Shown piece by piece: positions 40,109 to 56,666 of a stretch of DNA of 64,000 nucleotides. The position numbers were made by a program, and so were the translations under genes. The notes under the pieces are model-generated. The model was not told where the DNA came from. It ran no database searches and saw only the letters and a list, made by a program, of their open reading frames with translations. The DNA is from Candidatus Bathyarchaeia archaeon (lineage in GTDB: Archaea > Thermoproteota > Bathyarchaeia > Bathyarchaeales > Bathycorpusculaceae). Location of the stretch: assembly GCA_038880555.1 (NCBI GenBank), contig JAVZRN010000002.1, positions 223,264-287,263 of the forward strand. Reading direction: 5' to 3'. Numbering within the stretch: position 1 is the first letter of the stretch; each line of letters opens with the position of its first letter.

Positions 40109-40239
40109 CTCGCCTTTAGGCCATGTCCCAAATAAAATCTTCAATCTCGCCGAAGGACAGATACAGGAACTTTAAGCTTTGAAGAAACTCTTTGAAAACT
40201 TAGTTTCAGCCTCTGGGGCCGTTTCTTTGTGAAAAGACT

Positions 40240-40917
40240 CTAAAAAGACAAGAGCCAAGGCGCAAAAGCCTTCGCCAAAACAAGTATTATGAAGGAGGAA
40301 AGGGGCACAGTAACATTATCATCTATCGGATTTGACTCAAAATGCTCAATAAAAGAGGCTACGGCCCCAGCTATAACCCCAGCCCCGCCTAAAACGGCGC
40401 CTACCGGTATGGAGAAGGAAGCCATAGCCAAGTTTCCCCACCAAGACTTCGTCCTCCTCTTGTAAAGGATGTTCCGTACAATGCCAGTTATGGCATCCCC
40501 AACAGACATAAAAATAACTGGGAGCACCCCAAACCAAAAGCTTCCCTCGCCAGAAATAAGCCAGCCGAGGGTTATCACGACACCCCACATAATGCAGAAA
40601 GAAACTTCATAGGCATTCTCCTCCGTTTGGAACCAGTACATAAGCTTGCCACGCCTATGAGGCACGTAGAGGAAAACAGCCAGAAGCATAGCCATGGCAA
40701 ACGGAAAAAGTGGCGTCTTAAAAATGAAGGGCACAAGAAAAGCCACAACCCCGCCAGTTAAAATGTGAATAATCTTACGGTTATAATAAACCGCCACGTA
40801 ATGCTGCACACCCCGCCCGGTCAAAAAGCCATAAAGCCTCTTAGTCAAAAATTCAGCTACAAAGATAACCCAAACAAAAAGCATAACAGTGGCAATAGCC
40901 TCCCCAACAGATACCAT
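40240..40917 (-). CDS. Polytopic membrane protein, polyprenol (dolichol)/phytol kinase-like
   Basis: NRKIIHILTGG and SVGDAITGIVRN...K..WGNLAM resemble the CTP-dependent polyprenol kinase family. Confidence 0.45.
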   Translation of the reverse strand: MVSVGEAIATVMLFVWVIFVAEFLTKRLYGFLTGRGVQHYVAVYYNRKIIHILTGGVVAFLVPFIFKTPLFPFAMAMLLAVFLYVPHRRGKLMYWFQTEENAYEVSFCIMWGVVITLGWLISGEGSFWFGVLPVIFMSVGDAITGIVRNILYKRRTKSWWGNLAMASFSIPVGAVLGGAGVIAGAVASFIEHFESNPIDDNVTVPLSSFIILVLAKAFAPWLLSF

Positions 40918-41113
40918 ATAATAACATTTTCCTTAGGCAATATAAAAAATTGATGCTTAAAAACGTAAAAGATGGGCCGGGCCGGACTCATACCAAAACG
41001 GGTTCAAGTCTTTAGTCTTTAATTTTACAATAGTTGAGCAGGTTGCCTTATGCATTTTCCATTGATTTATCCATTGTTGTGATTTTAATGTTCTTGGGCA
41101 GAAATAGTTACTG

Positions 41114-42058
41114 GTGTTGTGTTTGGGGTGGTCAGATGATGTGAATTTAACAAGTTTTCTTTCGGTTTTGAAGACTAGCACCCGCAATGTTTATGGCCGA
41201 GGGTTAAAGCTTTTTGAACAGTTTTATGCTGACTATGGGTCTTTGAGAGTCTGGATCGAGTTGAGCGGGATAGGCTTTTGCCTAGACGCGAAAGGAGGCG
41301 CATAGCCACTGAAGTTTTGAATGGTTTTGTGGTTTGGCTTAGTGGTCGAGGCTATGCGCAAAAAACCATTAGGGTTTATGTTGGGGCTATCCAAAGCCTA
41401 GCCAAATACCATGACATACCCATTAGTTTGCGCTACGTGTGCCTTCCACCAGCCCATCCATAGGAAGCATCCATGGACTTTAGCGGAAATAGGTGAGTTC
41501 ATAGCCGCCATGGACAAGCCAATGTACAGGAGCATTGCAGCCTCCATCCTCCAAAGCGGATTAAGCCTATCCGACTTGCTAACCCTAACATACGGCGACA
41601 TCAAAGAAGAGCTTGAAGAGGAAGTTACGCCCTTATGCCTCGAGTTGACAAGGAAGAAAACTGGCGTTCAGTTCATGACATTTCTTGGGACCTGGGCTGT
41701 CAAGCTTCTTAAGGAACATTTGGCAAACCAAAAACCTGAAAACACATCACCAATCTACAACGTGACCGCCAGAACTGTGCACGCCTATTTCCGTAAGACC
41801 GCCCAGAAATACGCAGGTGCGTTTAAAGGCAGAAATCCCTACAGTCCCCACTCGTTGAGGGCGGCCTTCCGCACGTTCCTAAGCGACCATAAAGTGGATC
41901 CGCTATACATAGAATATTGGATGGGCCACAAACTACCCGAACAACTAAGCGCCTACATAAACAAGAGCAGAGAAAGCTGGAGACAAACATACCACGAACA
42001 AGCAGAACCATGGCTAACACCACCACAATACAAAACAATGTCGTTTATCTGCAACTAA
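41114..42058 (+). pseudogene. Tyrosine recombinase/integrase relic (two frameshifts; first catalytic Arg replaced)
   Basis: The N-terminal SAM-like domain is split over frames (41114..41305, 41233..41463). The catalytic domain is at 41411..42058 with HSLRAAFRT, WMGH and SAY. Box I reads GLSLSD instead of GLRxxE. Confidence 0.7.
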
Positions 42059-42314
42059 CGGAAAATTAGTAAGATGTTGGATGCACTCTTATGTATGAAG
42101 CTTTGAGAATTTCTGATAAAATTTAAATCTTGCCGTTCGTTTCCATGAGTGCAATAAAGAGCAGGTATAGCGTCCATGTTTCGCGCGTGCTACAAAGCGT
42201 ACATGTTGTCGTGGCACTTGGTTAAAGAAGGTGGTTAAAACGCAAGGGGTGAAGCATAATTATCGGGTTTAAGGAGGTAAGCATACGATTATTGAGCTGG
42301 CCGTTGCCTTTGTT

Positions 42315-42614
42315 TTGATTCTGGCTGTATCATCTATAATTTATTTGCTTGGACGTTTGTTGTCCGCTAAATCTATGCGTAGTGAAAATGGTAAATCTGC
42401 TTATGCTTGTGGTGAGAAGGTGAATTTTGATAAATTGAAAGTCAGCGTTTCTCATTATAGATATCTCATATACTTTGTGATTTTGGACTCGTCGGCGCTG
42501 TTGACGGCTTTTGCTGCATTGGCTATTCGCATGGCAAATGTTTTGTTCTTCGTAATTTACTTATTCATTGTCATTTTGTCTGGCTTGTTGCTTTTAGATG
42601 GAGGCGACCGTTAA
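42315..42614 (+). CDS. NuoA-like membrane subunit
   Basis: AYACGEKVNF...YLIYFVILDSSAL. The frame is open back to 42273 behind AAGGAGGT with only ATT/ACG codons, so the true start may be non-canonical (about 42288). Confidence 0.7.
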   Translation: MILAVSSIIYLLGRLLSAKSMRSENGKSAYACGEKVNFDKLKVSVSHYRYLIYFVILDSSALLTAFAALAIRMANVLFFVIYLFIVILSGLLLLDGGDR

Positions 42615-42637
42615 CGAGAAGAGCCAGCCTTTTAAAA

Positions 42638-43063
42638 TGGGCGAGGCTAAAATCACCTTGGGTTCTTCATTTTAATTCTGGAGCATGCAACGCTTGCGAT
42701 ATTGAGGTTGTCGCCCTTTTAACGCCTCGCTATGATGTTGAACGTTTTGGAATATTACTTGAACCTTCGCCAAGACATGCTGATGTTCTATTAACCACTG
42801 GTGTTGTCACCCGCCAATGTGCGGATAGATTGAGGCGTATTTATGAGCAGATGCCTGAGCCTAGATTTGTTGTTGCCATAGGTGCGTGTGCTTGTTCGGG
42901 CGGAGTGTTTGAAGGAAGTTACAATGTGATTGGCGGCGTTGATAAAGTCATTCCGGTCAATGTTTATATTCCGGGATGTCCACCAAAGCCAGAGGCGATA
43001 ATTGACGGTATTTTAAAATTGCTTGTTTCGCTCAAGGAGGCAAAGCATGTCGATAAACATTGA
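42638..43063 (+). CDS. [NiFe]-hydrogenase small subunit / NuoB-like (MbhJ-like)
   Basis: My own translation gives [38 protein letters not shown]...[12 protein letters not shown]...[10 protein letters not shown]...PGCPPKPEA. The ORF track lists only the last 77 codons (42830..), but the frame is open from ATG 42638. Confidence 0.85.
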   Translation, partial: [141 protein letters not shown]

Positions 43064-44636
43064 TGAGATTTTGAAAGCCTTAAGCGATGCGCTTAGGGAT
43101 AGGATACTCCAAACTAAATCTCTGCGTCCCGAAAAAACATGCATCCAAGTTGAGGCTGGAGCCCACAAAGACGCTGTAAAAGTTCTACTTAAACAGGATG
43201 GAAATGCAGGTATTTCCGCAATTACGGGCGTTGACCTCGGCGAAAAGATTGAGTTAATGTATCACATTCGCATCTGTGGCACAATAATTACCATCGGAAC
43301 CATTGTTTCAAAGGAAAATGCAAAGATTGAAAGCATAACGGACCTAATTCCTGGAGCGAATTTCCATGAAAGGGAAGTATCTGACCTTTTTGGCGTAACA
43401 TTCGAGGGACACCCAAACCCGAAGAGACTTATTCTTCCAGAAGACTGGCCGGAAAATGTTTTCCCGCTTAGAAAGGATGTCACAGCTGCAAATTTTCAGA
43501 GCAAAACACAGATTTCTGGGGCTTCAAAGGATCATGAGCGAGTTTCCAACGGTGAAAAGCTAGTAAACATTGTGTTAGGGCCTCAGCATCCTGCCTTGAT
43601 AGAGCCTGAAAAGTTTTCTTTGAAAGTTGACGGGGAAATTGTTAAGGAAGTTGCGCCTAGGATTGGCTATGTTCATAGAGGTATTGAGAAGGCTGCAGAA
43701 AGTCGCACTTACTTGCAGAATATTTACTTGGTTGAGAGAATATGTGGCATATGTAATGCTTGTCATGCTACCTGTTTTTGCCAGACGGTTGAGGCAATAA
43801 TGGGTGTGAACGTACCGCCTAGGGCTAGGTATTTGCGCACAATAATTTTGGAGTTGAATAGGATTCATAGTCACATGCTTCTTTTGGGTCATGCTGGCTT
43901 AGAAATTGGGTATGAAACCCTATTCCATTATATGTGGCGCGACAGAGAGCCAGTGTTAGACATTATGGAGGAGCTTACTGGCAATAGGGTTATCACATCA
44001 TTCATCACCATAGGAGGCGTTAGAAGAGACTTAAAAGAAGAGGCTATTTCAAAAATTAATGCGGGATTGGCAAGCTTAAAGAAGAAAATGAGTTTTTATA
44101 GGCAACTTTTTGAGAATGATTCAACATTAAAAATGCGAACAAGAGATGTTGGAGTCTTAAGCAAGCAAGACGCGTTAAAATTGTGTGTTGTTGGTCCTGT
44201 GGCGCGGGGGTCTGGTGTGGATATGGATGTTAGAAGGGATGAGCCATACGCAGCTTACAATGAAATACCTTTTAGGGTTATCACTTATGATGAAGGTGAC
44301 GCTTGGGCTAGGCTTATGGTTCGTTTAGGTGAGATTGTTGAAAGCATTAACATAATACAATATGCCCTAGAACATTTGCCAAGTGGCCCTTACAGAATCA
44401 AGGTGCCAAGGATTGTGCCAGCAGGTGAGGCTATTGGGCGTGTTGAAGCGCCTAGGGGGGAGTTGTTTTATTATGTGAAAAGTAATGGAACAGCGTATCC
44501 CGAACGTGTTAAGGTGCGCACTCCGACTTTCGCTAATATTCCAGCTTTCGTTAAGATTGCCGAGGGCGGTAATATTGCAGATGTGCCAGCAAGCTTTGTC
44601 AGTCTCGATCCATGTTTCTCATGCACAGATAGATAG
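43047..44636 (+). CDS. Fused NuoC-NuoD-like subunit = group-4 [NiFe]-hydrogenase large subunit with intact metal ligands
   Basis: The NuoC part is FHEREVSDLFGVTFEGHP...PLRKD. The large-subunit part has RICGICNACH (N-terminal CxxC) and DPCFSCTDR* (C-terminal CxxC, ending 3 residues later). The ATG 43047 follows AGGAGG. Confidence 0.9.
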   Translation: MSINIDEILKALSDALRDRILQTKSLRPEKTCIQVEAGAHKDAVKVLLKQDGNAGISAITGVDLGEKIELMYHIRICGTIITIGTIVSKENAKIESITDLIPGANFHEREVSDLFGVTFEGHPNPKRLILPEDWPENVFPLRKDVTAANFQSKTQISGASKDHERVSNGEKLVNIVLGPQHPALIEPEKFSLKVDGEIVKEVAPRIGYVHRGIEKAAESRTYLQNIYLVERICGICNACHATCFCQTVEAIMGVNVPPRARYLRTIILELNRIHSHMLLLGHAGLEIGYETLFHYMWRDREPVLDIMEELTGNRVITSFITIGGVRRDLKEEAISKINAGLASLKKKMSFYRQLFENDSTLKMRTRDVGVLSKQDALKLCVVGPVARGSGVDMDVRRDEPYAAYNEIPFRVITYDEGDAWARLMVRLGEIVESINIIQYALEHLPSGPYRIKVPRIVPAGEAIGRVEAPRGELFYYVKSNGTAYPERVKVRTPTFANIPAFVKIAEGGNIADVPASFVSLDPCFSCTDR

Positions 44637-44647
44637 GAGGATGCAGA

Positions 44648-45637
44648 ATGAGTTTTGATTTGGAGTTCCTGTTTCGTGTGTTGATTTTTCCAGGCTTCAC
44701 TTTCATTTTATTTTTCACGATGTTTTGCGATTGGGTTGAAAGAAAGATTGAGGCGCGGATGCAGAATAGGATGGGACCTACATATACTGGTCCATTTGGC
44801 GTTTTTCAACCATTTGCTGACTTTGTCAAGCTTTTGACTAAGGAGGACATTGTTCCATTTAATGTAAAAAATTTCGCTTTCAAATTCACTCCGATTTTCT
44901 CTTTCTCGATTTTTGTCTTCTCATTTGTCTTCTTGCCAATTGATGGGGCAAACATTATTTTTAATTCAAACTTTGAAGGTGACTTAATTATTGTTCTAAC
45001 ATTAGTTTCAATTGCCAATTTCTTTATTTTCCTTTCAGGGTGGTCTTCGATGAACCCTTACAGTGCAATAGGCGCTACAAGAGTTTTGACTCAGTTTTTG
45101 GGTTATGATATTCCTCTTTTCATTCTTGCATTGGCTCCAGCTTTTTTGGCTAAAAGTCTTAGCTTTTCAGTTATTGCTGCTAATCAGAATGTGCCATTTG
45201 TCTTCATGATTCCATGGGCTTTCGTGCTGTTTATTATTACGCTTCAAGCGGAGTTGGAGAAAGACCCATTTGATGTTCCGCACGCTGAGACGGAGATAGT
45301 TGGTGGATATGAAACTGAATATACAGGTAGAAGATTGGCTTTTCTTAAACTTGCTAAAGATGTGCAAATAGTGCTTGGAGCGGCCATAGTCGTTGAACTT
45401 TTCTTAGGCGGCCCTTACGGACCAACTTTTTATGGCCCATCTGCCTTTTGGTATACGTTGTGGTTTACGCTTAAACTGCTCGCGGTTGTGGCGCTTACAG
45501 AGTATTTGAAATGCGTTTTTGCGAGATTGCGTATCGATCAAGTGCTTGTTGTCAACTGGAAAGTGCTTCTGCCTTTGGCGTTTATTTCTCTTGCTGCGGC
45601 TGTTGGCGTGAGCTTGTGGTTTAACTTGTTGAGGTGA
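44648..45637 (+). CDS. NuoH/HycD-like membrane subunit
   Basis: ERKIEARMQNRMGPTYTGPFGVFQPFADFVKLLTKED. Confidence 0.85.
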   Translation: MSFDLEFLFRVLIFPGFTFILFFTMFCDWVERKIEARMQNRMGPTYTGPFGVFQPFADFVKLLTKEDIVPFNVKNFAFKFTPIFSFSIFVFSFVFLPIDGANIIFNSNFEGDLIIVLTLVSIANFFIFLSGWSSMNPYSAIGATRVLTQFLGYDIPLFILALAPAFLAKSLSFSVIAANQNVPFVFMIPWAFVLFIITLQAELEKDPFDVPHAETEIVGGYETEYTGRRLAFLKLAKDVQIVLGAAIVVELFLGGPYGPTFYGPSAFWYTLWFTLKLLAVVALTEYLKCVFARLRIDQVLVVNWKVLLPLAFISLAAAVGVSLWFNLLR

Positions 45638-45643
45638 AAGTGA

Positions 45644-46018
45644 ATGGCTAAGTTATCGCCAATTTTGAAGGAAGTGCTTGCTCACTTTTTCAAGAAGCCT
45701 GCAACTCGAAGATATCCAGAAGAGAAGCCTTATGTTCCCGTTGGTTTCCGGGGCAGGCAAATATTTGACATTAATTTGTGTATCAGTTGTGGGTTATGTG
45801 CTAGGGATTGTCCTGCAAAGGCTATTGAAATGGTTGAGGTTGATGGAAAGTTAAGGCCTCTTTTTCATCTGGACCGCTGTATATTCTGTTATCAGTGTGC
45901 TGAAAGTTGTCCCAGAAACGCTATTAAAAGTTCGGAAATTTTTGAGTTGGCCTCAACAAATAAATCCGATTTGGTTGTAAAGCCTAAAGCAAACAATGTG
46001 AGCGGAGGCTCTTTGTGA
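45644..46018 (+). CDS. NuoI-like 2x[4Fe-4S] ferredoxin subunit
   Basis: CISCGLCARDCP and CIFCYQCAESCP. Confidence 0.85.
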   Translation: MAKLSPILKEVLAHFFKKPATRRYPEEKPYVPVGFRGRQIFDINLCISCGLCARDCPAKAIEMVEVDGKLRPLFHLDRCIFCYQCAESCPRNAIKSSEIFELASTNKSDLVVKPKANNVSGGSL

Positions 46019-46019
46019 A

Positions 46020-46484
46020 ATGATTATTGAGCTGCTTGCTGTTGGATTGGTTGTTTCAGCTTGTTTGGCCATTTATCTTGATGAAGCAGTGTATTCTGTT
46101 GCTTCTTTGGCTTGCATGTTTGTTTTAATGGCTTTTTTGTATGCTTTAAATGATGCTTTGTTTGTAGCTGTTTTCCAGTTGGCTGTTGGTGCTGGAACTT
46201 TGGCTGTTCTCTTCTTGGCTGGCGAAATGTTAAGCGCGAAACCAGAAAAGGAGAAGCCCTTAAAGAAAATTTTTCCAGTTGCCTTGCTTGCAATTGTTTT
46301 ATCTCTTCCATCAATTTTCTTATCTGTTTCTGTTACGCCAGGTAATGTTTCTCCAAGTTTTTCTTTTGCTGATGCACTTTGGAATTTAAGAGCTATAGAC
46401 GTGATACTGCAGGGGTTGGTTATAATGACCGTTGCTCTGGGCATTGCAATAGTCCTACATGAGCGAAATGATGGTGAAAGCTAA
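46020..46484 (+). CDS. NuoJ/MbhD-E-like membrane subunit
   Basis: FVAVFQLAVGAGTLAVLFLAGEML plus a C-terminal MnhB-like helix (RAIDVILQGLVIMTVALG). Confidence 0.65.
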   Translation: MIIELLAVGLVVSACLAIYLDEAVYSVASLACMFVLMAFLYALNDALFVAVFQLAVGAGTLAVLFLAGEMLSAKPEKEKPLKKIFPVALLAIVLSLPSIFLSVSVTPGNVSPSFSFADALWNLRAIDVILQGLVIMTVALGIAIVLHERNDGES

Positions 46485-48064
46485 TGGATTACATAATTTT
46501 GTCGGTTGTTTTGCTTGCCGTTGGCATTTACGGCTTATTGACCAAGCGTCACCTTGTTAAAGTGTTAATTTCCATTGAAATTATTGCTGTGGCAGCGTCA
46601 ATGAATTTTGTGCTGTTAGCCTCTTCTTTGAATAGAACTTTAGGCGAAGCATTTCTGATACTTGCTTTTTCCACGGACACTTGCGTAACCGCCATAGTAT
46701 TAGCTTTGCTGGTTATAGTCGTCAAAAAGTATGGAACGTGCGACATTAGAAAGCTGGCAGAAATAGAGCAGAGTGTAGATAAGGAGCAGACAAAATTGAG
46801 GCTGAGCAGTGAAAGATTCTTTGAAGTAGCAAAATATTGGGTGTTGCCCTTAATTTTAGGCTCTATAATTGGCTTAGCCATATTCCTCCTTGTCTACATT
46901 TACAAACTGCTAAATTATGCGTCATTTATTATTGTAAACTGGAATTCTTCATTTCTTTTAGCCTCAACAATTGTTGCGCTCCTCGGAGGATATTTAACAA
47001 TAAGACTGTGGGCGGAAAATAAAGAGTGCGGTTGCGGAACAGAACTTGTAATTGAAAGATACCATTTCAAAAACGGCATTGTTAGCTTGAGAGATACCAT
47101 AAGCAGAACTTTGGCTTCTGCGATAACCATAGGTTTTGGTGGAAGCGCTGGATTAGAGGGACCAAGTCTTTTGTTAGGTGGAGGAATCTCTTCGTTTATT
47201 GCTAGAAGGCTAAAGTTGGATCAAAAAGATGTAAAAACACTGTTTCTGTGTGGAGCAGCAGCGGGATTTTCAGCGATCTTTAAGGCTCCATTGACGGGGA
47301 TATTATTTGCCCTTGAAATACCTTACAAGAGAGATGTTGAAACCGAGGTTTTTATTCCAGCGTCTATTGCTTCTGTTACCGCCTATTTTACGTCCGCCAT
47401 AACCCTTGGAACAGAAACCATTTTTCCAACTCCAACATTTATTATACCAACTCTTTCCACCCTTATGCATGCAATTTTTCTAGGAATCCTAGCGGCGTTA
47501 GTTGCGTTGGCATTCATGGAAACCCTTCAAAGAACAAACAGCATAAGCAAACGGCTTGCCAGCAGACTTCCAATGTGGCTTATGACCATATTTGCTGGAT
47601 TAATTCTCGGTGTCATAGGCTTGCTTTACCCTGAAGCGCTTGGGCTAGGTTACGATTTCATTCACAAAATCGCCATGACTGAATTAGGAGAATTAACTTT
47701 GACAAATTTGACCGCACTTTTAATTTTAAAAATTGTGGCCACAAGCGTAACACTGAATTTCGGTGGAAACGGGGGGCTATTCATTCCATCGCTTTATGTT
47801 GGCGGCGCACTTGGGCTCATTTACGCACAAACTTTGAACCTTGAGACGCCTGTTTTATATGTCATATTATCAATGGCTGCAGTGCTGGCTGCGACGAGCA
47901 AAAGCCTTTTGACAAGTATAACTCTGGTGGCTGAAACTATGGGTCCAAGCTTTATAGTCCCCACCGTTATTTCAGCTGTTGTCAGTTATTTTCTTACGGG
48001 AAGCAGATCACTATATAAAAGTCAACTTGTAAATAAATTGCAAGCAAGGCATGTGCAATGCTAA
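46484..48064 (+). CDS. In-frame fusion: NuoK/MnhC-like 3-TM module (about 100 aa) + ClC chloride channel/antiporter domain (about 420 aa)
   Basis: The N-terminus LLAVGIYGLLTKRHLVKVLISIEIIAVAASMNFV is NuoK-like. ClC motifs follow: GCGTE, GSAGLEGPS (gating Glu context), AAAGFSAIFKAPLTG and GGLFIPS. There is no stop between the two parts. Confidence 0.8.
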   Translation: MDYIILSVVLLAVGIYGLLTKRHLVKVLISIEIIAVAASMNFVLLASSLNRTLGEAFLILAFSTDTCVTAIVLALLVIVVKKYGTCDIRKLAEIEQSVDKEQTKLRLSSERFFEVAKYWVLPLILGSIIGLAIFLLVYIYKLLNYASFIIVNWNSSFLLASTIVALLGGYLTIRLWAENKECGCGTELVIERYHFKNGIVSLRDTISRTLASAITIGFGGSAGLEGPSLLLGGGISSFIARRLKLDQKDVKTLFLCGAAAGFSAIFKAPLTGILFALEIPYKRDVETEVFIPASIASVTAYFTSAITLGTETIFPTPTFIIPTLSTLMHAIFLGILAALVALAFMETLQRTNSISKRLASRLPMWLMTIFAGLILGVIGLLYPEALGLGYDFIHKIAMTELGELTLTNLTALLILKIVATSVTLNFGGNGGLFIPSLYVGGALGLIYAQTLNLETPVLYVILSMAAVLAATSKSLLTSITLVAETMGPSFIVPTVISAVVSYFLTGSRSLYKSQLVNKLQARHVQC

Positions 48065-49428
48065 AGTTGAATGTTCAAGTTTAAATTTATGAAAGTAAGT
48101 TCCATCCATAAGACTAGGGATGCTACGGTAACCTCGATAACTGATACGACTGATCCGACTTTCAAATAGTCTCTAAGCCTTATTGTAACGCCTTTTCGGC
48201 GCATTGTTTCAAGCCACATTAAAATTGCTAAAGATCCAAGAGGGAAAAAGTGTGGACCCAAGTTGTTTCCGATAATGTTTGAAAATATTAGGCCTGTGAG
48301 GCTCTGTGAGTTTAGGCTAACGTTGCTTACTGCCTGCCTTATCGATAAAAGGCCCAAGATGGTCATTGGCCAGTTGTTCATGGCGCTTGCGCCAATCGTT
48401 ACTATCATGCTTGGTGCAAGCACTGATAGAAACAGCGGCAATGAAAGAGTTTTTGTGAAGAGATATGCAAAGAATTCTACAGCGCCAGTATGTCTTAATC
48501 CTTGAACAACTAGGAATATGCCTATCATGAAGAGCAGAATGTCCCAGTTAATCTCCTTTGCTAGGCTTTTTACGCCTTTGCGCTCTTCTTTCAATATTGA
48601 AGGCTTGTTTAAAGTTATTATGTAAATTCCTAAAAGAAAAAGTGCACCAGAACATATGACAATTGAAACTGGAAGCCTGTTCAAAGAGGCTAAAACATAG
48701 CCAACGTCAATTACAATCAAGGTTACTATGCTTATCCTCAAGAGCGTGGAAGTTATCAATTGCTCTCCAGCGTTTAAAGCTTCCACAAGCTCCATCGAAT
48801 AAGATTTGGGAACACTTTTTCTAAAAAAGGCGTAAACCAGAAGGAGACTGCTAATTATAGTGGCTATGGCTACTGGTCCCATAAAAATAACGTGGTCGAT
48901 GAAGCTGTATTTGAAAAAGTCTGCGCTCACAATATTTATTGGATTGCTTGTGATTAGTGGCATTGCAGCGGTGTCAGCAATGAGCCCAGCGGAGAAAAGG
49001 TAGGCTAGTCTTCCTTTAGCATCTATTTTAAGCTGACTGATGATTTCAAGAACTATTGGCGTTAGTATAAGCACGGCGCTGTCGTTTGCAAAAAGTATGC
49101 TTACACAAGCAGTAAGCAAGGAAATGTAAAAGTAGAGTTTTAAGCCGCTTCCGCCTGCCAATTTAACCACTTTTATGGCTGCCCACTTGAAAAATCCCAT
49201 GGCGTCTAACGTCACTGATAAAGTTACAATTCCAATAAAGGCTAAAGCGGCGTCCCAAATGTCAACAAAAGCCACAGCCGCATCGCTTAACGTTACTGTG
49301 CCAAGCAAAAGCGAAACTGCAGCGCCTATTCCGGCAGCCAAACCCAGACTTACGCCATGCGGGCGTTTAATCATCAAGAAAAGCGTTATTATGAAAATTG
49401 CCAGTGTAGTCACTGAATGGTAGTCCAT
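48061..49428 (-). CDS. ArsB/NhaD-superfamily (CitMHS-like) anion/ion permease
   Basis: 455 aa, about 11-12 TM, with the typical internal two-fold organisation. It converges on the ClC fusion with a 4-nt overlap. Confidence 0.7.
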   Translation of the reverse strand: MDYHSVTTLAIFIITLFLMIKRPHGVSLGLAAGIGAAVSLLLGTVTLSDAAVAFVDIWDAALAFIGIVTLSVTLDAMGFFKWAAIKVVKLAGGSGLKLYFYISLLTACVSILFANDSAVLILTPIVLEIISQLKIDAKGRLAYLFSAGLIADTAAMPLITSNPINIVSADFFKYSFIDHVIFMGPVAIATIISSLLLVYAFFRKSVPKSYSMELVEALNAGEQLITSTLLRISIVTLIVIDVGYVLASLNRLPVSIVICSGALFLLGIYIITLNKPSILKEERKGVKSLAKEINWDILLFMIGIFLVVQGLRHTGAVEFFAYLFTKTLSLPLFLSVLAPSMIVTIGASAMNNWPMTILGLLSIRQAVSNVSLNSQSLTGLIFSNIIGNNLGPHFFPLGSLAILMWLETMRRKGVTIRLRDYLKVGSVVSVIEVTVASLVLWMELTFINLNLNIQL

Positions 49429-49644
49429 GGTTATCAGCGATGCAGACTTTATAGCTCATAATAAAACTGTTTCGTTATTAATTGTGCAATTTTATGAGTA
49501 AAACTGCTTAATCTCCGCCTTATGCCAGACAAAATTTAAATTGTTGACTTTTATATCTCAAAAGGCTGGTTTAAAATGGGTTAGGAAGGCGTAAAACACG
49601 AGAGGCATACAAACGAAACTGAACGTTGCATTTGAAAAAGTGGG

Positions 49645-51684
49645 ATGATGAGTTTGTTTCCATATGCGCCTTGGCTCGTTTGGGCATTTCCAATTGTTTC
49701 CAGTCTGCTGGTTCCATTAATTGCACGTTTCAGCAAGAGAGCTAAAGATTACTTCGCCGTAGCCGTGTGTTTAATCGCCTTAATATTCGCTTTTTCCATG
49801 GTTCCCGACGTTTACTTTAACGTTTTGGAAAGCTCTAATTTGACAGTGTATTGGATTCCATCTTTAAGCATTAGCGCAGGTGTATATATTGACCCATTAA
49901 GCGTTTTGCTTGCATGTCTGGTTACGTTCTTCGGTCTTGTGATAACAGTTTATTCTTTGGGTTACATGGCTGGCGAGGAAGGCTTAACACGATATTACTT
50001 TTTCATGCTTCTCTTTATAGGCTCGATGACAGGTTTGGTTATGTCGGACAATTTCCTTCAAATGTTCATATTCTGGGAGATGGTTGGACTCTGTTCCTAT
50101 TCGCTTATTTCCTTCTGGTATAAACGCCCCGAGACAGTTCGTTCAGCCACCAAAGTTTTCCTCATGACTCGTGTAGGAGACGCTTGCCTCTTAGCGGGAA
50201 TATGCATCCTCTACGTAAACTTGGGCTCATTCTCCTTCTCTTACATTATAAATAACATAGGAAATGTGCCAATGCGGCATTTAACAGCAGCAGCCTTTCT
50301 AATGCTCGCCGGAGCTGTCGCAAAATCGGCTCAGCTTCCGCTTCACACATGGCTTTACAGCGCCATGGAAGCACCTACATCCGTAAGTGCGCTTCTGCAC
50401 TCTGCGACGATGGTTAAAGCAGGAGTTTACTTGATTGCCAGATTAATGCTCTTGTTTGGCGCTTTAACGGCTTTAATTCCCATGTGGTTGCCATCAATCC
50501 TTTGGATTGGCGTAATAACAGCGTTTATCGGCGCTACTTTGGCTTTATCTGCAACAGACATTAAGGGTGTGGCTGCTTACTCCACAATAAGCCAAATAGG
50601 TTTTATGTTTGCAGCTTTAGGCACAGCATCTTTCGTTCCATCGGCTGGCTGGTTTGCAAGCTTACTTCATCTAGTAAGTCATGCGCTCTTTCAAGGTCTT
50701 GACTTTCTCTTGATAGGCGGAATCATCCATGCAACAAAAACACGCGATATGCGATTGATTGGAGGATTAAGAAAGGCAATGCCTATAACATTTGCATTCG
50801 GCATTATTGTATTGTTAGCTCGCGCTGGAATACCTCCATTCATAAGCTTTTTCAGCAAAGAACTAATCTTCCAAAGCGTTCTATCGTCAGGAAACTTGCA
50901 TGCCGCGCTCATACTTTATGTTTCCACAGCAATTACGTTTGCCTACACGCTACGGGTTGTCACACTTGTATATTTGAGGGAGAAATCAGAGTATTTGAGT
51001 CAGATTCACGTGCATGAAGCGCCAAAAATAATGCTTTTCTCATCTGGAGTTCTCGCAGTTTTCTGCGTTATATTTGTCTTGTTTGGAAATGAAATTTCAC
51101 AATTCATGCATGCTAATGTGGAAATAGGCTTAGGTGAAGTGTTTAACCCGTCAACTTTGATTTTTCTCTTCACACTTCTGATGGGAGGATTTCCGGTGTA
51201 CCTTACATACTATAGGAAACTCTCGTTGCCAGAACAAATAAGGCCGTTGCGAGGTTCCATAAACAAAGTTTTGGAGAACGGTTACTTCTTTGACGCTCTA
51301 TATGAAAAGGTGATTCCTCGTGGGGTCTGGCTGCTTTCATCAAGTCTTAAGCGTGCGGAATCATCCTTTTTTGGACGGTTACCCCAATTTATCGCCAATG
51401 GTATTATACGATTTTTCAGAATTTTTTATGAGCATGTTGAAAAATCCTTCTTTAATCGTCTGCCTTATCTTTTTGCAAATGGAGTTATGAATGTGGCTCA
51501 TGGAACCCGGAAGTATTTAGACATTCTTGCCGACGAACTTTTATATATTGCAACTAACAAGACTCTGGCTTCAGCATCTAAAATAAGAAGAGTGCGGTCT
51601 GGCTCCTTAGAACATTATGTGGCAGCAGCCCTAATCGGCTTTTTAATAATCCTTATACTCATGATAGTTACAATGCTAAGATAA
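49645..51684 (+). CDS. NuoL-like antiporter subunit with a C-terminal lateral-helix region and terminal TM
   Basis: WEMVGLCSYSLISFW, GAVAKSAQLPLHTWL and a long amphipathic C-terminal segment followed by the last TM (AALIGFLIILILMIV). Confidence 0.85.
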   Translation: MMSLFPYAPWLVWAFPIVSSLLVPLIARFSKRAKDYFAVAVCLIALIFAFSMVPDVYFNVLESSNLTVYWIPSLSISAGVYIDPLSVLLACLVTFFGLVITVYSLGYMAGEEGLTRYYFFMLLFIGSMTGLVMSDNFLQMFIFWEMVGLCSYSLISFWYKRPETVRSATKVFLMTRVGDACLLAGICILYVNLGSFSFSYIINNIGNVPMRHLTAAAFLMLAGAVAKSAQLPLHTWLYSAMEAPTSVSALLHSATMVKAGVYLIARLMLLFGALTALIPMWLPSILWIGVITAFIGATLALSATDIKGVAAYSTISQIGFMFAALGTASFVPSAGWFASLLHLVSHALFQGLDFLLIGGIIHATKTRDMRLIGGLRKAMPITFAFGIIVLLARAGIPPFISFFSKELIFQSVLSSGNLHAALILYVSTAITFAYTLRVVTLVYLREKSEYLSQIHVHEAPKIMLFSSGVLAVFCVIFVLFGNEISQFMHANVEIGLGEVFNPSTLIFLFTLLMGGFPVYLTYYRKLSLPEQIRPLRGSINKVLENGYFFDALYEKVIPRGVWLLSSSLKRAESSFFGRLPQFIANGIIRFFRIFYEHVEKSFFNRLPYLFANGVMNVAHGTRKYLDILADELLYIATNKTLASASKIRRVRSGSLEHYVAAALIGFLIILILMIVTMLR

Positions 51685-51695
51685 GAGGCGAAAAA

Positions 51696-53174
51696 ATGCA
51701 AAACACACTTTTATTAACAATAATTTTGCCCGCATTGGCTGTTCCATTCGTTTATTTTTTAGGCAAAAAATCTCCTAAAAGTGCAGCCTTCCTAATAGCC
51801 TTACTATGCCTAATCAACATCGCAATTTTCTCTACAACTGTACCGACAATCCTAAACGGCGCAAACCACAAGTATATCGAATCTTACTACTGGATTCCGG
51901 TTCTCCACGCTTCACTCACACTTTTTGTTGATGGAATAAGCCTCTCAATGGCAATCATAACTCTAATACTCATTTTGACAGCGGCGCTCTTCTCAATAAA
52001 TTACATGCAAGAGAAGAAGGGACTAGCTGAATACTACACTCTCTTGACAATGCTCTCAATAGGACTCGTCGGCGTCTTCATAACATCAAACCTCATGCTA
52101 TTTTACTTCTGCTGGGAACTAATGCTTCTACCATCATACTTCATAATAGGCGGATGGGGCTACAGAGAACCATACAAAGCAGCCTTCAAATTCTTCATAT
52201 TCACCCACGCGGGTGCAGTCTTCGTCTTATTGGGCATAGGCGCAATATTCATGGTCACAGGCGACTTGGACATGTTCCAGGCGCAAACTGCGCTAATGAC
52301 AGCTAATCCAGAACTCGCCAAATGGATATTGCTATCTTTAACAGTTGGTTTCGCAGTTAAGATGGCTGCGGTTCCAGTTCACATGTGGTTGCCCGACGCA
52401 CATTCCGAGGCACCTGCACCCATGTCTGCATTATTAAGCGGCGTAATAATCAGCGCTGGTGCTTACGCAATACTACGTGTATCTCTAGGGACAGTTTTTC
52501 CAGCAGTTATGGCAACAGGTTTTGGAAACATGTTCCTACATGGATTAACTACTTTTGGAATAATATCAGCCTTTTTCGGCTCCTTAATCGCCTTGGTGGA
52601 AACTGACATAAAACGGATAATCGCCTATTCTAGCATAGCCCACATGGGCTATGTTCTCTTTGGGCTTTCACTCTTTCCATTCCAAGAACCCGTCACAGGT
52701 ACAGTCTTACACCTTGTGAATCATGCTGTAAGTAAAGGCTTATTCTTTTTGTCGGCGGGCGCTGTTATGAAACAGCTTGAGGTTCGCGATATACGTGAAA
52801 TGGGCGGGCTTGCGGGAAAAATGCCAATTACAGCTACGGTTTCTACAATAGCAGCGTTAAGTATTGCGGGAATACCACCATTTGCATGTTTTATGAGCGA
52901 ATTTTTGATATTTGTTGGAGCATTTCAAACAATCAAAATTGACAACTTTTATCTCATTCCAACAGCACTGATGCTTGTAGCCACAGTTTTGTCTCTAGCC
53001 TACGCTTTAAGATTTTTAAGCCACGTCTTCCTTGGCGAAACAAAACACGAAAAAATTTCCGATGCTCCCCTCTATATGAAGTTAGCCATGATTATTCTAG
53101 CTGTGCTCACAGTTATCCTTGGAGTATGGCCCACGTTCTTCATACAACTAATCTCAAGCGTAAGCTTTGTCTAG
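51696..53174 (+). CDS. NuoM-like antiporter subunit
   Basis: FYFCWELMLLPSYFIIG, FAVKMAAVPVHMWLPDAHSEAP. Confidence 0.85.
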   Translation: MQNTLLLTIILPALAVPFVYFLGKKSPKSAAFLIALLCLINIAIFSTTVPTILNGANHKYIESYYWIPVLHASLTLFVDGISLSMAIITLILILTAALFSINYMQEKKGLAEYYTLLTMLSIGLVGVFITSNLMLFYFCWELMLLPSYFIIGGWGYREPYKAAFKFFIFTHAGAVFVLLGIGAIFMVTGDLDMFQAQTALMTANPELAKWILLSLTVGFAVKMAAVPVHMWLPDAHSEAPAPMSALLSGVIISAGAYAILRVSLGTVFPAVMATGFGNMFLHGLTTFGIISAFFGSLIALVETDIKRIIAYSSIAHMGYVLFGLSLFPFQEPVTGTVLHLVNHAVSKGLFFLSAGAVMKQLEVRDIREMGGLAGKMPITATVSTIAALSIAGIPPFACFMSEFLIFVGAFQTIKIDNFYLIPTALMLVATVLSLAYALRFLSHVFLGETKHEKISDAPLYMKLAMIILAVLTVILGVWPTFFIQLISSVSFV

Positions 53175-53186
53175 TGAGGAACGCAG

Positions 53187-54683
53187 ATGATAGAGCTTTT
53201 GGATGCATCTTTACCAATAATCGCCTTCGTTTTGTTTTCTCTTTTAACGATTCCGGTTGTTAAAATTACTCGTAAAAAAGGAAGCGCGAAAAATGTTTTG
53301 ATTCTTTGTTGGTTCTTAACAATTTTCGTTATTGCCGGTCTGACTGTGGCGAACCTTGCACTGAAATATTATGCTGAACCATCCCCTCAGCCTTTTATAA
53401 ACCTGTCACTAATTGAAGGTTCTTCAACTATTTTCTCCAGCATGTTTTTGGTGGATGCGGTGTCAGTTTACATGGCGATAATTTTCACGGGCGTAGGCGC
53501 AGTTGTTACCGTATACAGCCTCTTTTTCATAGATTCTGATGAGGGGTTTTCAGAACGCTATTACGCTGTTATGTTGATGATTATTGGCTGCGTTATAGGA
53601 ACAGCCCTTGCTGGTGATTTATTAACGCTCTTCATTTTTTGGGAAGCAGCAGCCGCCGGCTCAAGCTTCTTAATGCTATACCAAAAAACAACAAAGTCAC
53701 TGCATGCCACGCTAAAGTATCTGACCATGATAATAATAGCTTCAGCTTTCATAATTTATGGACTTTCAGTGATTTACGCCCTTACAGGTTCGCTTAATTT
53801 TTGGGAGGTAAAACATGCATTGGCTTCTCTTGCGGATAAGCACTTAATCGAGATAGCATTTATTTTTATTGCAGCAGGCTACTCGATAGAAGCAGCTGTT
53901 GTGCCATTCCACATGTGGCTTCCAGACGCTTACACGGCAGCCCCAGCCCCTTCCTCAGCGTTTCTATCGGCGCTTGTTGATCAAGCAAGCTACTATGTAC
54001 TGCTTAGGGTGCTAATTTACATTTTAACGCCTCCAACAGTTCTGCCATGGACGTTTATGTTTGCAGTTCTCTCAGCATTAACTATGATTGTGGGCAACTT
54101 GCTTGCACTGACGGAAAAAAACGTTAAACGTTTAATAGCGTATATTTGCATTGCAGACGTAGGCTACAATCTTGTGGCAATAACAAGCGTGACATCACTC
54201 GGCATAATGGGGAACCTCTACTTTTTCCTTGCTGGTGGAATAACAACAGCCCTTGCATTTATGATCGTTGGAATCTTCAACAGCATGGGATTTAAAAACT
54301 TAGAGGATTTTTCTGGAGTAGGTAAAAGAATGCCGCTTACGAGTTTAGCCCTAATTTTAGCTGCTTTCTCATTCGCCGGAGTCCCGGTGTTTGCTGGTTT
54401 TATAGCAAAATACTTAGTGTTCACATCTGCCATAGGGGCAAACATGAGTTGGCTAGCCGTCATAGGTGTCTTGACCAGCGTAATCCAAGCTGCTTACTTG
54501 TTAAGGCTAATTAATTACATGTATGCTAAAAAACCAAAAGAGGAAAGCAAGGTCAAAGAACCAAAAAAGCTGCTTATACCAATTTTCATTCTTGCCGTTT
54601 CAATAGTTGTTTTAGGCATTTACCCAAATATAGTTTTAAATCTTATAGAGCCGGTCATAAAGCAATTACAGTTTATGCCCTAA
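53187..54683 (+). CDS. NuoN-like antiporter subunit
   Basis: LFIFWEAAAAGSSFLM, AGYSIEAAVVPFHMWLPDAYTAAP. Confidence 0.8.
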   Translation: MIELLDASLPIIAFVLFSLLTIPVVKITRKKGSAKNVLILCWFLTIFVIAGLTVANLALKYYAEPSPQPFINLSLIEGSSTIFSSMFLVDAVSVYMAIIFTGVGAVVTVYSLFFIDSDEGFSERYYAVMLMIIGCVIGTALAGDLLTLFIFWEAAAAGSSFLMLYQKTTKSLHATLKYLTMIIIASAFIIYGLSVIYALTGSLNFWEVKHALASLADKHLIEIAFIFIAAGYSIEAAVVPFHMWLPDAYTAAPAPSSAFLSALVDQASYYVLLRVLIYILTPPTVLPWTFMFAVLSALTMIVGNLLALTEKNVKRLIAYICIADVGYNLVAITSVTSLGIMGNLYFFLAGGITTALAFMIVGIFNSMGFKNLEDFSGVGKRMPLTSLALILAAFSFAGVPVFAGFIAKYLVFTSAIGANMSWLAVIGVLTSVIQAAYLLRLINYMYAKKPKEESKVKEPKKLLIPIFILAVSIVVLGIYPNIVLNLIEPVIKQLQFMP

Positions 54684-54739
54684 AATTTAGATTCGTATTT
54701 AAGCAAAGATTTCCTAATACAATTATGAAGGGTTAGGCC

Positions 54740-56269
54740 GTGCAGCCAAAGAACCATAAACTCATAGCGTTTAACGATTTGGAACGCATGATAATACAGC
54801 AGGGTTTTTGCACAGTATGCGGCGCATGCGAAGCTGCATGCCCTATCCATGCAATAAAAGTGGAACACGAAAAACCCCAGAGACTTTACGATTGCTCTGA
54901 ACATATAGATACATGCCCAATTTGCTACGACATTTGCCCCCATACTGACGCACTTATCTATGAAGCATTAAGGTTTGTTGCTGACGCACCGAAAAGAAGA
55001 GAAAACTTGGGTTACTACAGAGAAATTCTGCTTGCGCAGGCCGCTAATCCAAGCATAAGAGCTGCAACAAAAAGTGGAGGAGTCGTAAACGCGCTTCTTA
55101 ATTTTGCCATCAGTGAAAAGATAATTGATGGCGCCATAACTTCAAAAGCATCACCTGCAACATCCTTAAAGGCTAAGCCTTCCATAAGTCTTGCGCCGGA
55201 CGATATGCTCTCCGCTGTCGGCTCTAAAATTGTGCCTTCAGCCGTTGCACAAGCTTATGGACGTGCGGTTTTTGAACATGGCAAAACACATATAGCCTTC
55301 GTGGGCATACCATGCCACGTTCTCGGACTTCGAAAACTTGAAGCATGGCAACATAAAATTATAGATGGTTTAGAGATAATTATAGGGCTTTTTTGTCTAT
55401 GGGGTTTTTCATTAAGCACAGTGCTGGAATTTCTCTTAGATGAGTACCATATTGCTGTTAATGAAATTCAAAGTGTCGATTTGTCTGCAGATGCATACAT
55501 TGTAAACATGGAAAATCGTCAAATTCGAGTCCCCATCTCCAAAGTTAAATCTCATATCCTAAACCGTTGCAAAACATGTGTAGACTTCACCTCAGAATAC
55601 GCTGATTTAAGCATTGGCGGGGCAAGCCCATTAAAAGAATGGTCAATTGTAATTATCAGAACTAGAAAAGGTGAAGAGTTCTTTAACAAAGCTTTAACCA
55701 GCGGCATCATAATAACTAAGAATGTAGAAGAGGAACCACAAGCATTAGCTCACCTAATTCAATTGGCAGCACACAAAAGAAAAAGCGCGTTGCAAGAAAT
55801 GAAAACTATGAGAGAAAGAGGAGTATACGTTCCAGCAACCGCGGAACTCTTTGTTAGACCCAGACCAAGCGAATTCAGCCTCTTAGAAAGGGTTAACGTG
55901 GAACAAATTATGACAAAAAACGTGGTAACGTTGCCTCCAACCCTAACTATCAGCCAGTTTTTCAAAAAAATAGCTGAACATCACCATATAGGTTTTCCGG
56001 TAATAAACGAATCAGGCAAAATCATAGGAATAGTCACACTGCAAGATGCAATGAAAATTCCAGAAGAAAAGCGAAACAACGTTTCTATAGGTGAAATCTA
56101 CACAAAGAAACTGATAACAATTTACCCCGACAACTCTGTAGCCGAAGCCCTCGAAAAAATGGATAAACATAACGTTGGCAGACTTCTAGTGTTTGACAAA
56201 AATGACAAATTAGTAGGAATATTAACGAGAAGTGACATAATGCACTTAATAAGGAAAACCTTATATTAA
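54740..56269 (+). CDS. FrhB/FpoF-family (F420-hydrogenase beta-like) iron-sulfur flavoprotein fused to a C-terminal CBS pair
   Basis: CTVCGACEAACP...CPICYDICP ferredoxin motifs, an FrhB-like core (VGIPCHVLGLRKL, CKTCVDFTSEYADLSIGG), and two CBS units (IMTKNVVTLPP..., ITIYPDNSVAEALEKM...). Confidence 0.75.
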   Translation: MQPKNHKLIAFNDLERMIIQQGFCTVCGACEAACPIHAIKVEHEKPQRLYDCSEHIDTCPICYDICPHTDALIYEALRFVADAPKRRENLGYYREILLAQAANPSIRAATKSGGVVNALLNFAISEKIIDGAITSKASPATSLKAKPSISLAPDDMLSAVGSKIVPSAVAQAYGRAVFEHGKTHIAFVGIPCHVLGLRKLEAWQHKIIDGLEIIIGLFCLWGFSLSTVLEFLLDEYHIAVNEIQSVDLSADAYIVNMENRQIRVPISKVKSHILNRCKTCVDFTSEYADLSIGGASPLKEWSIVIIRTRKGEEFFNKALTSGIIITKNVEEEPQALAHLIQLAAHKRKSALQEMKTMRERGVYVPATAELFVRPRPSEFSLLERVNVEQIMTKNVVTLPPTLTISQFFKKIAEHHHIGFPVINESGKIIGIVTLQDAMKIPEEKRNNVSIGEIYTKKLITIYPDNSVAEALEKMDKHNVGRLLVFDKNDKLVGILTRSDIMHLIRKTLY

Positions 56270-56666
56270 GGCATTTCTAACTGGCTTATAAAAGGAATGC
56301 CAAATGAATATAGCCTTACTCGCCTACACTTGCACATCAACTTTCATCTATATAGCTTTGCTGATCTGGTGGCTTTATAGGTATAACCGCACTAGTCGCG
56401 ATATTAATATGGTTCGGGAAGAAATAGAACAGACATTGAAGACTATTAAATTAGCAACAGTCAACAAGAAGACATAAACTGTAAGAATAATACCAGCTAA
56501 ACATAATTTAAAAACCAGCTGGCCATGACATTTTACTAAGCAGGAAGGTATCCTTTAGTTCTCTTACATTTCTAATGTTTGGCGGGCTCTTAAGATTCCA
56601 TATACTTTTAATTCTCTTAAAAGTTTCTTTTTATGCCAATTTCTCTAATATTTCTGTTAACAGCGA

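Follow-up and report, generated by a model that had tools for sequence, protein, structure and literature searches.

We analysed a 64,000-nucleotide stretch of a Candidatus Bathyarchaeia archaeon contig (JAVZRN010000002.1; the whole stretch is referred to below as the window), in which the gene for a NuoK-like subunit is joined in frame to a gene of the chloride channel (CLC) family. In this thermophilic Bathyarchaeia lineage the locus forms a complex-I-like (Nuo/Fpo-like) operon for 11 subunits, with an insert of ~2.85 kb between nuoK and nuoL. The insert consists of the CLC gene, a convergent ArsB-family gene and a spacer, and the remaining nuo genes are all intact. The features are listed below in window coordinates, each with its basis in parentheses (ORF, open reading frame; aa, amino acids; AF2, AlphaFold2).

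46484..48064, + strand: fused ORF, NuoK module plus CLC module (ORF listing, Pfam, NCBI MEM3875178.1)
46484..46777, + strand: NuoK/FpoK module, aa 1-98 (Pfam, hydropathy, PDB alignment to ND4L/NuoK)
46778..46798, + strand: junction, equal to the old nuoK/CLC overlap (nucleotide alignments with relatives)
46796..48064, + strand: CLC module, 422 aa counted from the conserved TTG (Pfam, PDB alignment, AF2)
48061..49428, - strand: convergent ArsB-family (ion-transporter superfamily) permease, 455 aa (Pfam, NCBIfam, conservation)
49429..49644, no strand: divergent intergenic spacer between the ArsB gene and nuoL, 216 bp, a putative promoter region (conserved blocks in the alignment)
42315..46484, + strand: upstream half of the operon, nuoA, nuoB, nuoCD, nuoH, nuoI and nuoJ (ORF listing, Pfam, NCBIfam)
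49645..56269, + strand: downstream half of the operon, nuoL, nuoM, nuoN and an FrhB/FpoF-like protein with two CBS domains (Pfam, NCBIfam; order shared with the related loci L008-L011, L015, L022 and L023)

The fused ORF is uninterrupted, starts 1 nucleotide (nt) past the end of nuoJ and encodes 526 aa. In Pfam its translation matches Oxidored_q2/NuoK over aa 3-93 (E 2.3e-17, 62.9 bits, cutoff 26.1) and Voltage_CLC over aa 167-505 (E 1.2e-76, 258.6 bits), and the motifs GCGTE, GLEGPS and GGLFIPS are all present. The in-frame NuoK::ClC ORF claimed in a preliminary description of this DNA is thereby confirmed, as are the convergent 455-aa permease and the 216-bp gap ahead of nuoL that it reported. 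The exact protein is deposited at NCBI as MEM3875178.1, from a 300-kb contig; its label there is simply 'chloride channel protein [Candidatus Bathyarchaeia archaeon]', so that no NuoK is annotated for the operon.

Related loci were gathered from JGI, ENA, Logan and NCBI data, with a metagenome scan contributing 80 loci. A full-length nuoK lies directly upstream of a related CLC gene in 38 loci, 34 of them in operon context, and nuoK and CLC are separate genes in 33 of these 34. Fused loci number 4 of the 38 and represent two allele types; the window is the sole fused case inside a complete operon. The closest operon, L020, with 98.9% nt identity over 42045..47155, is unfused, keeps the TTT and the ATG discussed below and encodes a 109-aa NuoK that overlaps CLC. 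NuoK plus CLC in one polypeptide is consequently not a conserved clade-wide architecture. Protein searches agree: the nearest CLCs of the whole-protein search (85-94% aa identity) are nearly all 421-448 aa long and CLC-only, the best 120 NuoK relatives are all stand-alone proteins of 94-117 aa with no NuoK+CLC fusion among them, and the 150 nearest 50%-identity NuoK cluster representatives include no protein of fusion length (all 50-239 aa).

Nucleotide alignments give the ancestral junction as ATGAGGAGC.GACAAAATTTGAGG, i.e., CAG ATG AGG AGC.GA CAA AAT TTG AGG. The junction in the window reads GTAGATAAGGAGCAGACAAAA-TTGAGG; one T is gone from the AAAATTTG run and the ATG is now ATA, as is also the case in L017 and L105. 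In window coordinates, the ATA at 46779-81 is the mutated ancestral ATG of CLC, AAGGAG at 46781-86 is Shine-Dalgarno-like, CAG at 46787-89 corresponds to TAG in L017, A4 at 46792-95 followed by TT at 46796-97 marks the site of the 1-nt deletion, and TTG at 46796-98 is the start codon conserved for CLC. Two linked substitutions accompany the deletion, GCA to GTA and ATG to ATA. Because one T of the run was lost, the frame difference between nuoK and CLC was removed, and nuoK therefore misses its TGA and reads through CLC.

Across lineages the boundary between the two genes forms a series, from a spacer of 26-60 nt (with a 105-aa NuoK that has an acidic tail) through a 4-nt overlap and a 35-41-nt overlap, where the CLC ATG lies within the nuoK tail in a different frame, to the in-frame fusion. 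The TTG equivalent to window positions 46796-98 occurs in nearly all loci with a GGAG-type motif 8-14 nt upstream, and this near-universal presence together with the motif marks it as the conserved CLC initiation codon. We considered a programmed +1 ribosomal frameshift at A AAA TTT G and rejected it since the run is not conserved in relatives; it is found only in the youngest sublineage, and the relatives at 82% identity read CCAACCCTTGCGG there.

The window allele recurs at L105 (protein P0250, 524 aa), where the junction is identical, including the T deletion and the two linked substitutions. L105 is a 3-kb piece of the operon (45083..48134: nuoH'-I-J-K::CLC) among unrelated genes, in a metagenome-assembled genome (MAG) labelled Methanomethylicaceae. 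The syntenic locus L017 has the same deletion with CAG 46787-89 changed to TAG, which yields a 101-aa NuoK and a separately initiated CLC. The second fused allele (L003, L014, protein P0255) has one base missing at another alignment position and CTG for TTG, and its fragment runs from a nuoI' whose Cys ligands are degenerate through nuoJ and nuoK::CLC to 420 nt of the ArsB gene. In a neighbour-joining tree built from the CLC region, unfused copies fall between the branches of the two fused alleles, so that two independent deletions are the most parsimonious reading and the second fused allele probably originated independently. Mismatch profiles of the window are L020-like over 43200-46400 and L105/L017-like over about 46500-46900; judged by these profiles, the fused junction sits within a recombination patch. 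The preliminary description had named, as a possibility that would undo the fusion, that it is unique to this assembly and absent in close relatives; fused alleles in other assemblies dispose of the first half, and the unfused state of the closest relative L020 upholds the second.

Two further observations concern fused ORFs. In L105, nuoI and nuoJ also form one ORF of 279 aa (9162..10001; Fer4 plus Oxidored_q3), a second fusion of neighbouring genes in the same transplanted piece. We did not accept P0066 (342 aa, on a 1090-nt Logan contig) as support for the fusion: the order is reversed, with the N-terminal 240 aa of a related CLC followed by NuoK, and the protein probably results from a chimeric assembly or a rearrangement.

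The conserved feature of these operons is the placement of CLC, usually together with ArsB, between nuoK and nuoL. Four metagenome contigs (L008-L011) and one MAG contig (L015) are colinear with 42272..56274 of the window at ~82% nt identity, in the order nuoA-B-CD-H-I-J-K, CLC, convergent ArsB, nuoL-M-N, FrhB/CBS, and the arrangement is the same in L022, whose CLC is only 59% identical. The sister operon L023/L024, with a NuoK 88% identical, has no insert, and its nuoK stop abuts the nuoL start. The ArsB gene is present in most related operons, missing in L052 and L076 and reduced to a remnant in L027; CLC is retained where ArsB is lost and is thus the constant element of the insert. Between the window and L008 and L015, synonymous divergence (dS) is 0.65-0.72 for CLC (ratio of nonsynonymous to synonymous divergence, omega, 0.13-0.17) and 0.66-0.70 for ArsB (omega 0.10-0.12), as compared with 0.58-0.88 for the flanking nuoJ, K and L. 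Because the divergence of CLC and ArsB matches that of the flanking nuo genes and both are under purifying selection, the insert is an old, vertically inherited resident of the operon. A recent landing of a mobile CLC-ArsB cassette, an idea that had come from the 85-94% identical CLCs in unrelated contexts, was rejected in view of the matching dS and of the colinear operons at 82% nt and 59% CLC aa identity.

The literature searched on NuoK with ClC, or on Bathyarchaeia complex I with a chloride channel, contained no description of the arrangement, in line with the statement in the preliminary description that none was known to its author. Non-fpo genes inside Bathyarchaeia fpo-like operons have been noted, with only hdrB2 named (Qi et al. 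2021, PMC8407382).

The NuoK module covers positions 2-92 of the 95 in Pfam PF00420, above the curated threshold, and is also matched by the NCBIfam NuoK and FpoK models with scores under their equivalog cutoffs. Its identity to the 109-aa NuoK that L020 encodes as a stand-alone protein is 97%, and it can be aligned over its whole length with ND4L/NuoK chains from solved structures of complex I. Hydropathy analysis finds hydrophobic segments at aa 1-22, 24-49 and 55-86, a first loop with charge +3/0 and a K/R-rich tail, and the corresponding helices in AF2 are 2-19, 24-48 and 51-84. In the PDB alignment, Glu32 in the second transmembrane helix (TM2) aligns with the conserved Glu of ND4L/NuoK, and the canonical TM3 Glu position is occupied by Val, with Asp64 three residues before it. 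All close stand-alone NuoKs share this Val/Asp pattern, which is therefore a trait of the clade and not an effect of the fusion.

The CLC module covers positions 4-345 of the 346 in Pfam PF00654, matches StClC and ClC-ec1 in the PDB (E 1e-20) and has a confident CLC fold in AF2, with the confidence score pLDDT >90 from about aa 115. Aligned with StClC, its filter reads GCGTE, with Cys in place of the central Ser, GLEGP, which retains the external gating Glu, and GLFIP; Ile occupies the internal Glu position, and conservation does not extend to the central Tyr. Of the canonical Cl-/H+ exchanger residues (GSGIP Ser, GREGP Glu, E203, Y445) the module has the external Glu alone, and it lacks CBS domains. 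GCG and an ALEIPYK block are invariant across the CLCs of the clade. The CLC-F signature is absent from the module in an alignment with 6D0J, where GCGTE stands against GMNLV and GGLFIP against GGEVTP. At its C-terminus the window CLC ends in …KLQARHVQC, and the overlap with the convergent ArsB gene is 4 nt. Some other copies (L001/L002 at 7268..7347; P0242, P0253) have a different C-terminus, ~25 aa longer (…KLSKQGMCNAKVECSSLNLRKQFQTIKPRMLQ), and overlap the 3' end of the convergent ArsB gene by ~80 nt.

As to whether the two halves fit together, NuoK is N-out/C-in in published complex I structures and the positive-inside rule suggests the same orientation for the module in the window. The N-terminus of ClC-ec1 is cytoplasmic. 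Since the C-terminus of NuoK would thus lie inside and the N-terminus of CLC is cytoplasmic, the join is topologically allowed, and the compatibility that the preliminary description proposed to check holds for the positive-inside rule, the three hydrophobic segments and the CLC N-terminus alike. The tether between the modules spans about aa 81-117 and consists of the NuoK tail and CLC helix A; the native NuoK of the clade already has a free cytoplasmic tail of 20-35 aa. In the AF2 model of the fusion, computed on a custom alignment, there is no sign of co-folding or packing between the modules; the NuoK part is unplaced at a low pLDDT of 40-55, and the model is thus uninformative beyond the lack of a confident contact with CLC.

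The 455-aa ORF on the opposite strand matches ArsB (E 2.5e-76) and CitMHS in Pfam, and its stop codon overlaps that of CLC by 4 nt. It scores 258 bits in Pfam against a cutoff of 22, 359 against 457 for PRK15445 and 333 against 415 for TIGR00935; because the NCBIfam ArsB scores fall below the cutoffs, a substrate is not assignable. Neither arsR nor arsC was found between nuoK and nuoL or among the flanking ORFs scanned (40000-56269).

Beyond the ArsB gene, the 216-bp gap (49429..49644) leads to the nuoL start at 49645. The motif CAAAATTTAAATTG at 49530-49543, which lies ~100 nt ahead of the nuoL ATG, is similar to archaeal BRE/TATA elements. Spacer blocks that include it hardly vary among relatives, even as far as L022 with its 59% identity (2 substitutions), and further conserved A/T-rich blocks lie nearer the ArsB gene. 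We judged the promoter from this conservation among relatives, a sigma-70 promoter and terminator scan being unsuited to an archaeal host. It is plausible that there are two transcription units, nuoA-K-CLC and nuoL-N, with ArsB divergent from nuoL. The promoter-like gap that the preliminary description saw as splitting the cluster does correspond to a conserved promoter-like spacer ahead of nuoL.

The account that we favour, with a probability of about 0.8, is that an old CLC(-ArsB) insert resides in the complex-I-like operon, that separate nuoK and CLC genes are its normal state and that the fusion in the window is a recent allele created by a 1-nt deletion. Normally there would be two proteins, nuoK ending just before the CLC gene or up to 41 nt inside it, and CLC would be translated from the conserved TTG with its own Shine-Dalgarno-like motif. 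From this layout it follows that CLC would be co-transcribed with nuoA-K and probably translationally coupled to nuoK. With one T lost from the AAAATTTG run, the cytoplasmic C-terminal tail of NuoK would continue into the cytoplasmic N-terminal helix of CLC. The window is predicted to yield a NuoK-CLC polypeptide of 526 aa, and probably free CLC besides, since both the TTG and the AAGGAG are retained; all NuoK, on the other hand, would have to carry CLC. As far as the nucleotide comparisons go, the fusion is best regarded as a sporadic allele of recent origin, which is exchanged by recombination between hot-spring populations that occur together and appears to be tolerated rather than a selected architecture.

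Some points weigh against this account. Internal initiation and promoter activity are read from conserved motifs. The fused ORFs are intact across ~8% nt divergence between the window and L003 (omega 0.21 for CLC and 0.23 for the NuoK part). On at least two occasions the fusion arose or was retained, and the fused form could have some advantage.

As for physiology, anion/H+ exchange might serve as an electrical shunt or in pH or halide homeostasis beside a proton pump, and ArsB would export arsenite or another anion. The conserved adjacency fits co-expression, perhaps of an anion shunt or a resistance cassette, and would be compatible with a functional association of the two proteins.

Among the alternatives, it is possible, at somewhat less than even odds, that the CLC-ArsB insert is a passenger, i.e., an ion or toxic-anion resistance cassette that has no tie to the complex, inserted itself behind nuoK, brought a promoter for nuoL-N and was never removed because removal was not selected. 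The same CLC is found alone in many genomes (L021, L048, L050 and others) and, at 85-95% nt identity, in MAGs labelled Thermofilum, Methanomethylicia, Nezhaarchaeales, Brockarchaeota and Archaeoglobaceae, often beside tRNA genes; sister operons work without the insert, and ArsB has been lost from L052, L076 and L027. CLC, however, is kept even where ArsB is gone, the nuoK-CLC junction is tight and becomes tighter across lineages (from spacer to 4-nt to 35-41-nt overlap), and the arrangement is under purifying selection down to 59% CLC identity.

We consider it unlikely that the fusion is a damaging lesion, in which NuoK that always carries a 46-kDa transporter impairs assembly of the complex and the allele is transient and mildly deleterious, the operon heading to loss or repair. 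The allele is indeed very young in operon context (L020 differs by ~1%), the fused patch looks recombinant, no complete operon besides the window has the fusion, and L017, the only sister copy of the same allele, regained separation by a nonsense mutation. Yet the other nuo genes of the window are intact, and an extension at the C-terminus is conceivable given the free 20-35-aa tail of native NuoK. Fused ORFs have also persisted in other genomes, which is a weak point because NuoK function is irrelevant there.

Under a further reading, CLC would be an accessory partner of the Fpo/Nuo-like complex, co-translated with NuoK and positioned beside the membrane arm as an anion/proton shunt, with fusions tolerated since the proteins are already neighbours. 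We find this decidedly doubtful; if true, a dedicated anion transporter module would be documented for the first time in a relative of respiratory complex I.

Equally hard to credit, and quite improbable in our estimate, is the proposal of the preliminary description that the covalent NuoK-CLC link is itself functional, docking an anion channel or Cl-/H+ exchanger on the membrane arm and thereby tying anion flux physically to proton pumping, so as to compensate charge or interconvert gradients. At least 4 loci with two allele types have an intact fused ORF, the topology is compatible, adjacency with overlapping stop and start is kept over deep divergence, and fusion of neighbouring genes is often read as a hint of protein interaction. 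Nevertheless, nuoK and CLC are separate in 33 of the 34 loci in operon context, L020 with its 98.9% identity among them, and the other fused copies are in transplanted fragments with partial upstream nuo genes (a degenerate nuoI' in L003/L014, a beginning within nuoH in L105) and no nuoL/M/N, so that there is no complex in those places to couple to. In addition, L017 has been split again by its TAG, AF2 gives no packing between the modules, and CLCs are homodimeric whereas complex I holds a single NuoK. With most fused copies lacking the complex, one re-split and the closest operons unfused, the fusion lends no specific support to physical coupling, and the link as a functional principle is not borne out.

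Lastly, a sequencing or assembly artefact, i.e., a 1-nt homopolymer error masking a true frameshift, is highly implausible: only one base in the A4T3 run does separate the window from its closest relative at the critical site, but the deletion is linked to the GCA to GTA and ATG to ATA substitutions, the whole allele is found exactly in the independent assembly L105, L017 holds it with one further change, and short-read assemblies are not prone to errors in homopolymers as short as 3-4 nt.

Pieces of the operon centred on CLC are also found in non-nuo contexts at 85-97% nt identity (L001/L002, L003/L014, L004/L005/L016, L006, L007, L012, L013, L017/L105, L018 and L019). They variously hold a nuoK' stub, nuoI'-J-K, nuoA-B' joined directly to CLC, nuoL' stubs and ArsB 3' remnants, and left boundaries at 46777, 46642 and 45797 recur among them. 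Because the foreign CLC copies carry nuoK', nuoL', nuoI' and nuoA-B' stubs and are nested inside the operon-borne diversity, they are escapes from the operon. Several adjoin tRNA genes (tRNA-Ala in L001, tRNA-Leu/Thr in L006, tRNA-Arg in L013) and a remnant resembling an integrase N-terminus. The host MAGs, mostly from the Tengchong DRTY/JZ springs, are labelled Bathyarchaeia, Nitrososphaeria, Thermofilum, Methanomethylicia, Nezhaarchaeales, Brockarchaeota and Archaeoglobaceae. Mis-binning may explain some of this spread, as L004 ('Thermofilum') and L016 ('Archaeoglobaceae') are 99.8% identical over 5.7 kb. Taken together, the escaped copies point to recent horizontal spread of CLC.

Several observations concern the rest of the operon. 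The nuoB frame (42563..43063) is open and full-length against the 148-151-aa NuoB of relatives, and no ATG, GTG or TTG precedes the conserved N-terminus LLKWARLKSPW; gene callers give only 71-77 aa. The start codon is likewise missing in the 82% relative L008 (5803..6285), a pattern that points to coupling with nuoA or to a non-canonical start. The last gene of the operon, 54740..56269, encodes an FrhB/FpoF-like protein (Fer4 plus FrhB_FdhB_N/C) with a C-terminal CBS pair, which is kept in interrupted and uninterrupted operons alike (L008, L010, L023) and is split in some relatives into an 88-aa Fer4 piece and a 368-aa piece. The idea of a link between this pair and the CBS domains that the CLC is without was rejected because the protein occurs in uninterrupted operons too and its identity to CLC-CBS relatives is a generic 24%. 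Just upstream of nuoA, a tyrosine-recombinase (Phage_integrase) gene (41114..42058) is broken into at least 3 frames, only the last 215-aa piece of which gives the Pfam match. No tRNA genes were found in the whole 64-kb window.

As it stands, the locus is a clean case in which a one-base deletion in overlapping genes makes a 'Rosetta-stone' fusion that alone does not indicate interaction. It also reveals horizontal spread, among archaea of hot springs, of a non-canonical CLC with a GCGTE filter. Should a function underlie the conserved embedding of CLC, anion/proton exchange would be managed together with proton pumping in thermophilic archaea, and the fused loci would be a natural construct for testing proximity. 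To our knowledge, such coupling is known for V-ATPase/ClC pairs and not for complex I relatives.

Both halves can be compared with known systems. The NuoK module resembles NuoK/ND4L/FpoK in its full-length match, its three hydrophobic helices and its TM2 glutamate, and in a gene that directly follows nuoJ and stands ahead of nuoL. It differs in that the window NuoK is not a separate polypeptide: the gene has no stop of its own, the C-terminal tail runs into a 420-aa transporter and 2.85 kb lie between NuoK and nuoL; in addition, the clade has Val at the TM3 Glu position with Asp three residues earlier. Fused complex-I subunits such as NuoCD of E. coli (NuoCD is fused in the window as well) are similar in that neighbouring operon genes merge into one ORF. 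However, those fusions join subunits of one complex and are fixed across clades, whereas the window joins a subunit to an unrelated secondary transporter in a rare allele.

The CLC module shares with the prokaryotic Cl-/H+ exchangers ClC-ec1 and StClC (PDB 1OTS/1KPL) the whole-profile Voltage_CLC match, the predicted fold, the external gating Glu (GLEGP), the GxFxP motif and a cytoplasmic N-terminus. Unlike them, the CLCs of this clade have an invariant Cys for the central Ser, and the window CLC has Ile for the internal proton-transfer Glu, does not keep the central Tyr and is CBS-less. It is also unlike the CLC-F fluoride/H+ antiporters in lacking Met/Asn at the central Ser position and GxExTP. 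The permease is similar to the arsenite/antimonite efflux permease ArsB (PF02040) in its full-length matches (258 bits in Pfam, 359 bits for PRK15445), but its gene is convergent to CLC inside a respiratory operon instead of belonging to an ars operon.

In a wider sense the arrangement can be compared with the counter-ion shunts of electrogenic proton pumps, known examples of which are ClC-ec1 in the extreme acid resistance of E. coli and ClC-5 and ClC-7 alongside the V-ATPase. The CLCs of these systems are neither encoded in the operon of the pump nor fused to it, and a role for the one in the window would be assigned by analogy. As in those systems, the probable co-expression of a CLC with a proton-translocating machine could allow membrane potential to be dissipated or Cl- to be exchanged for H+.

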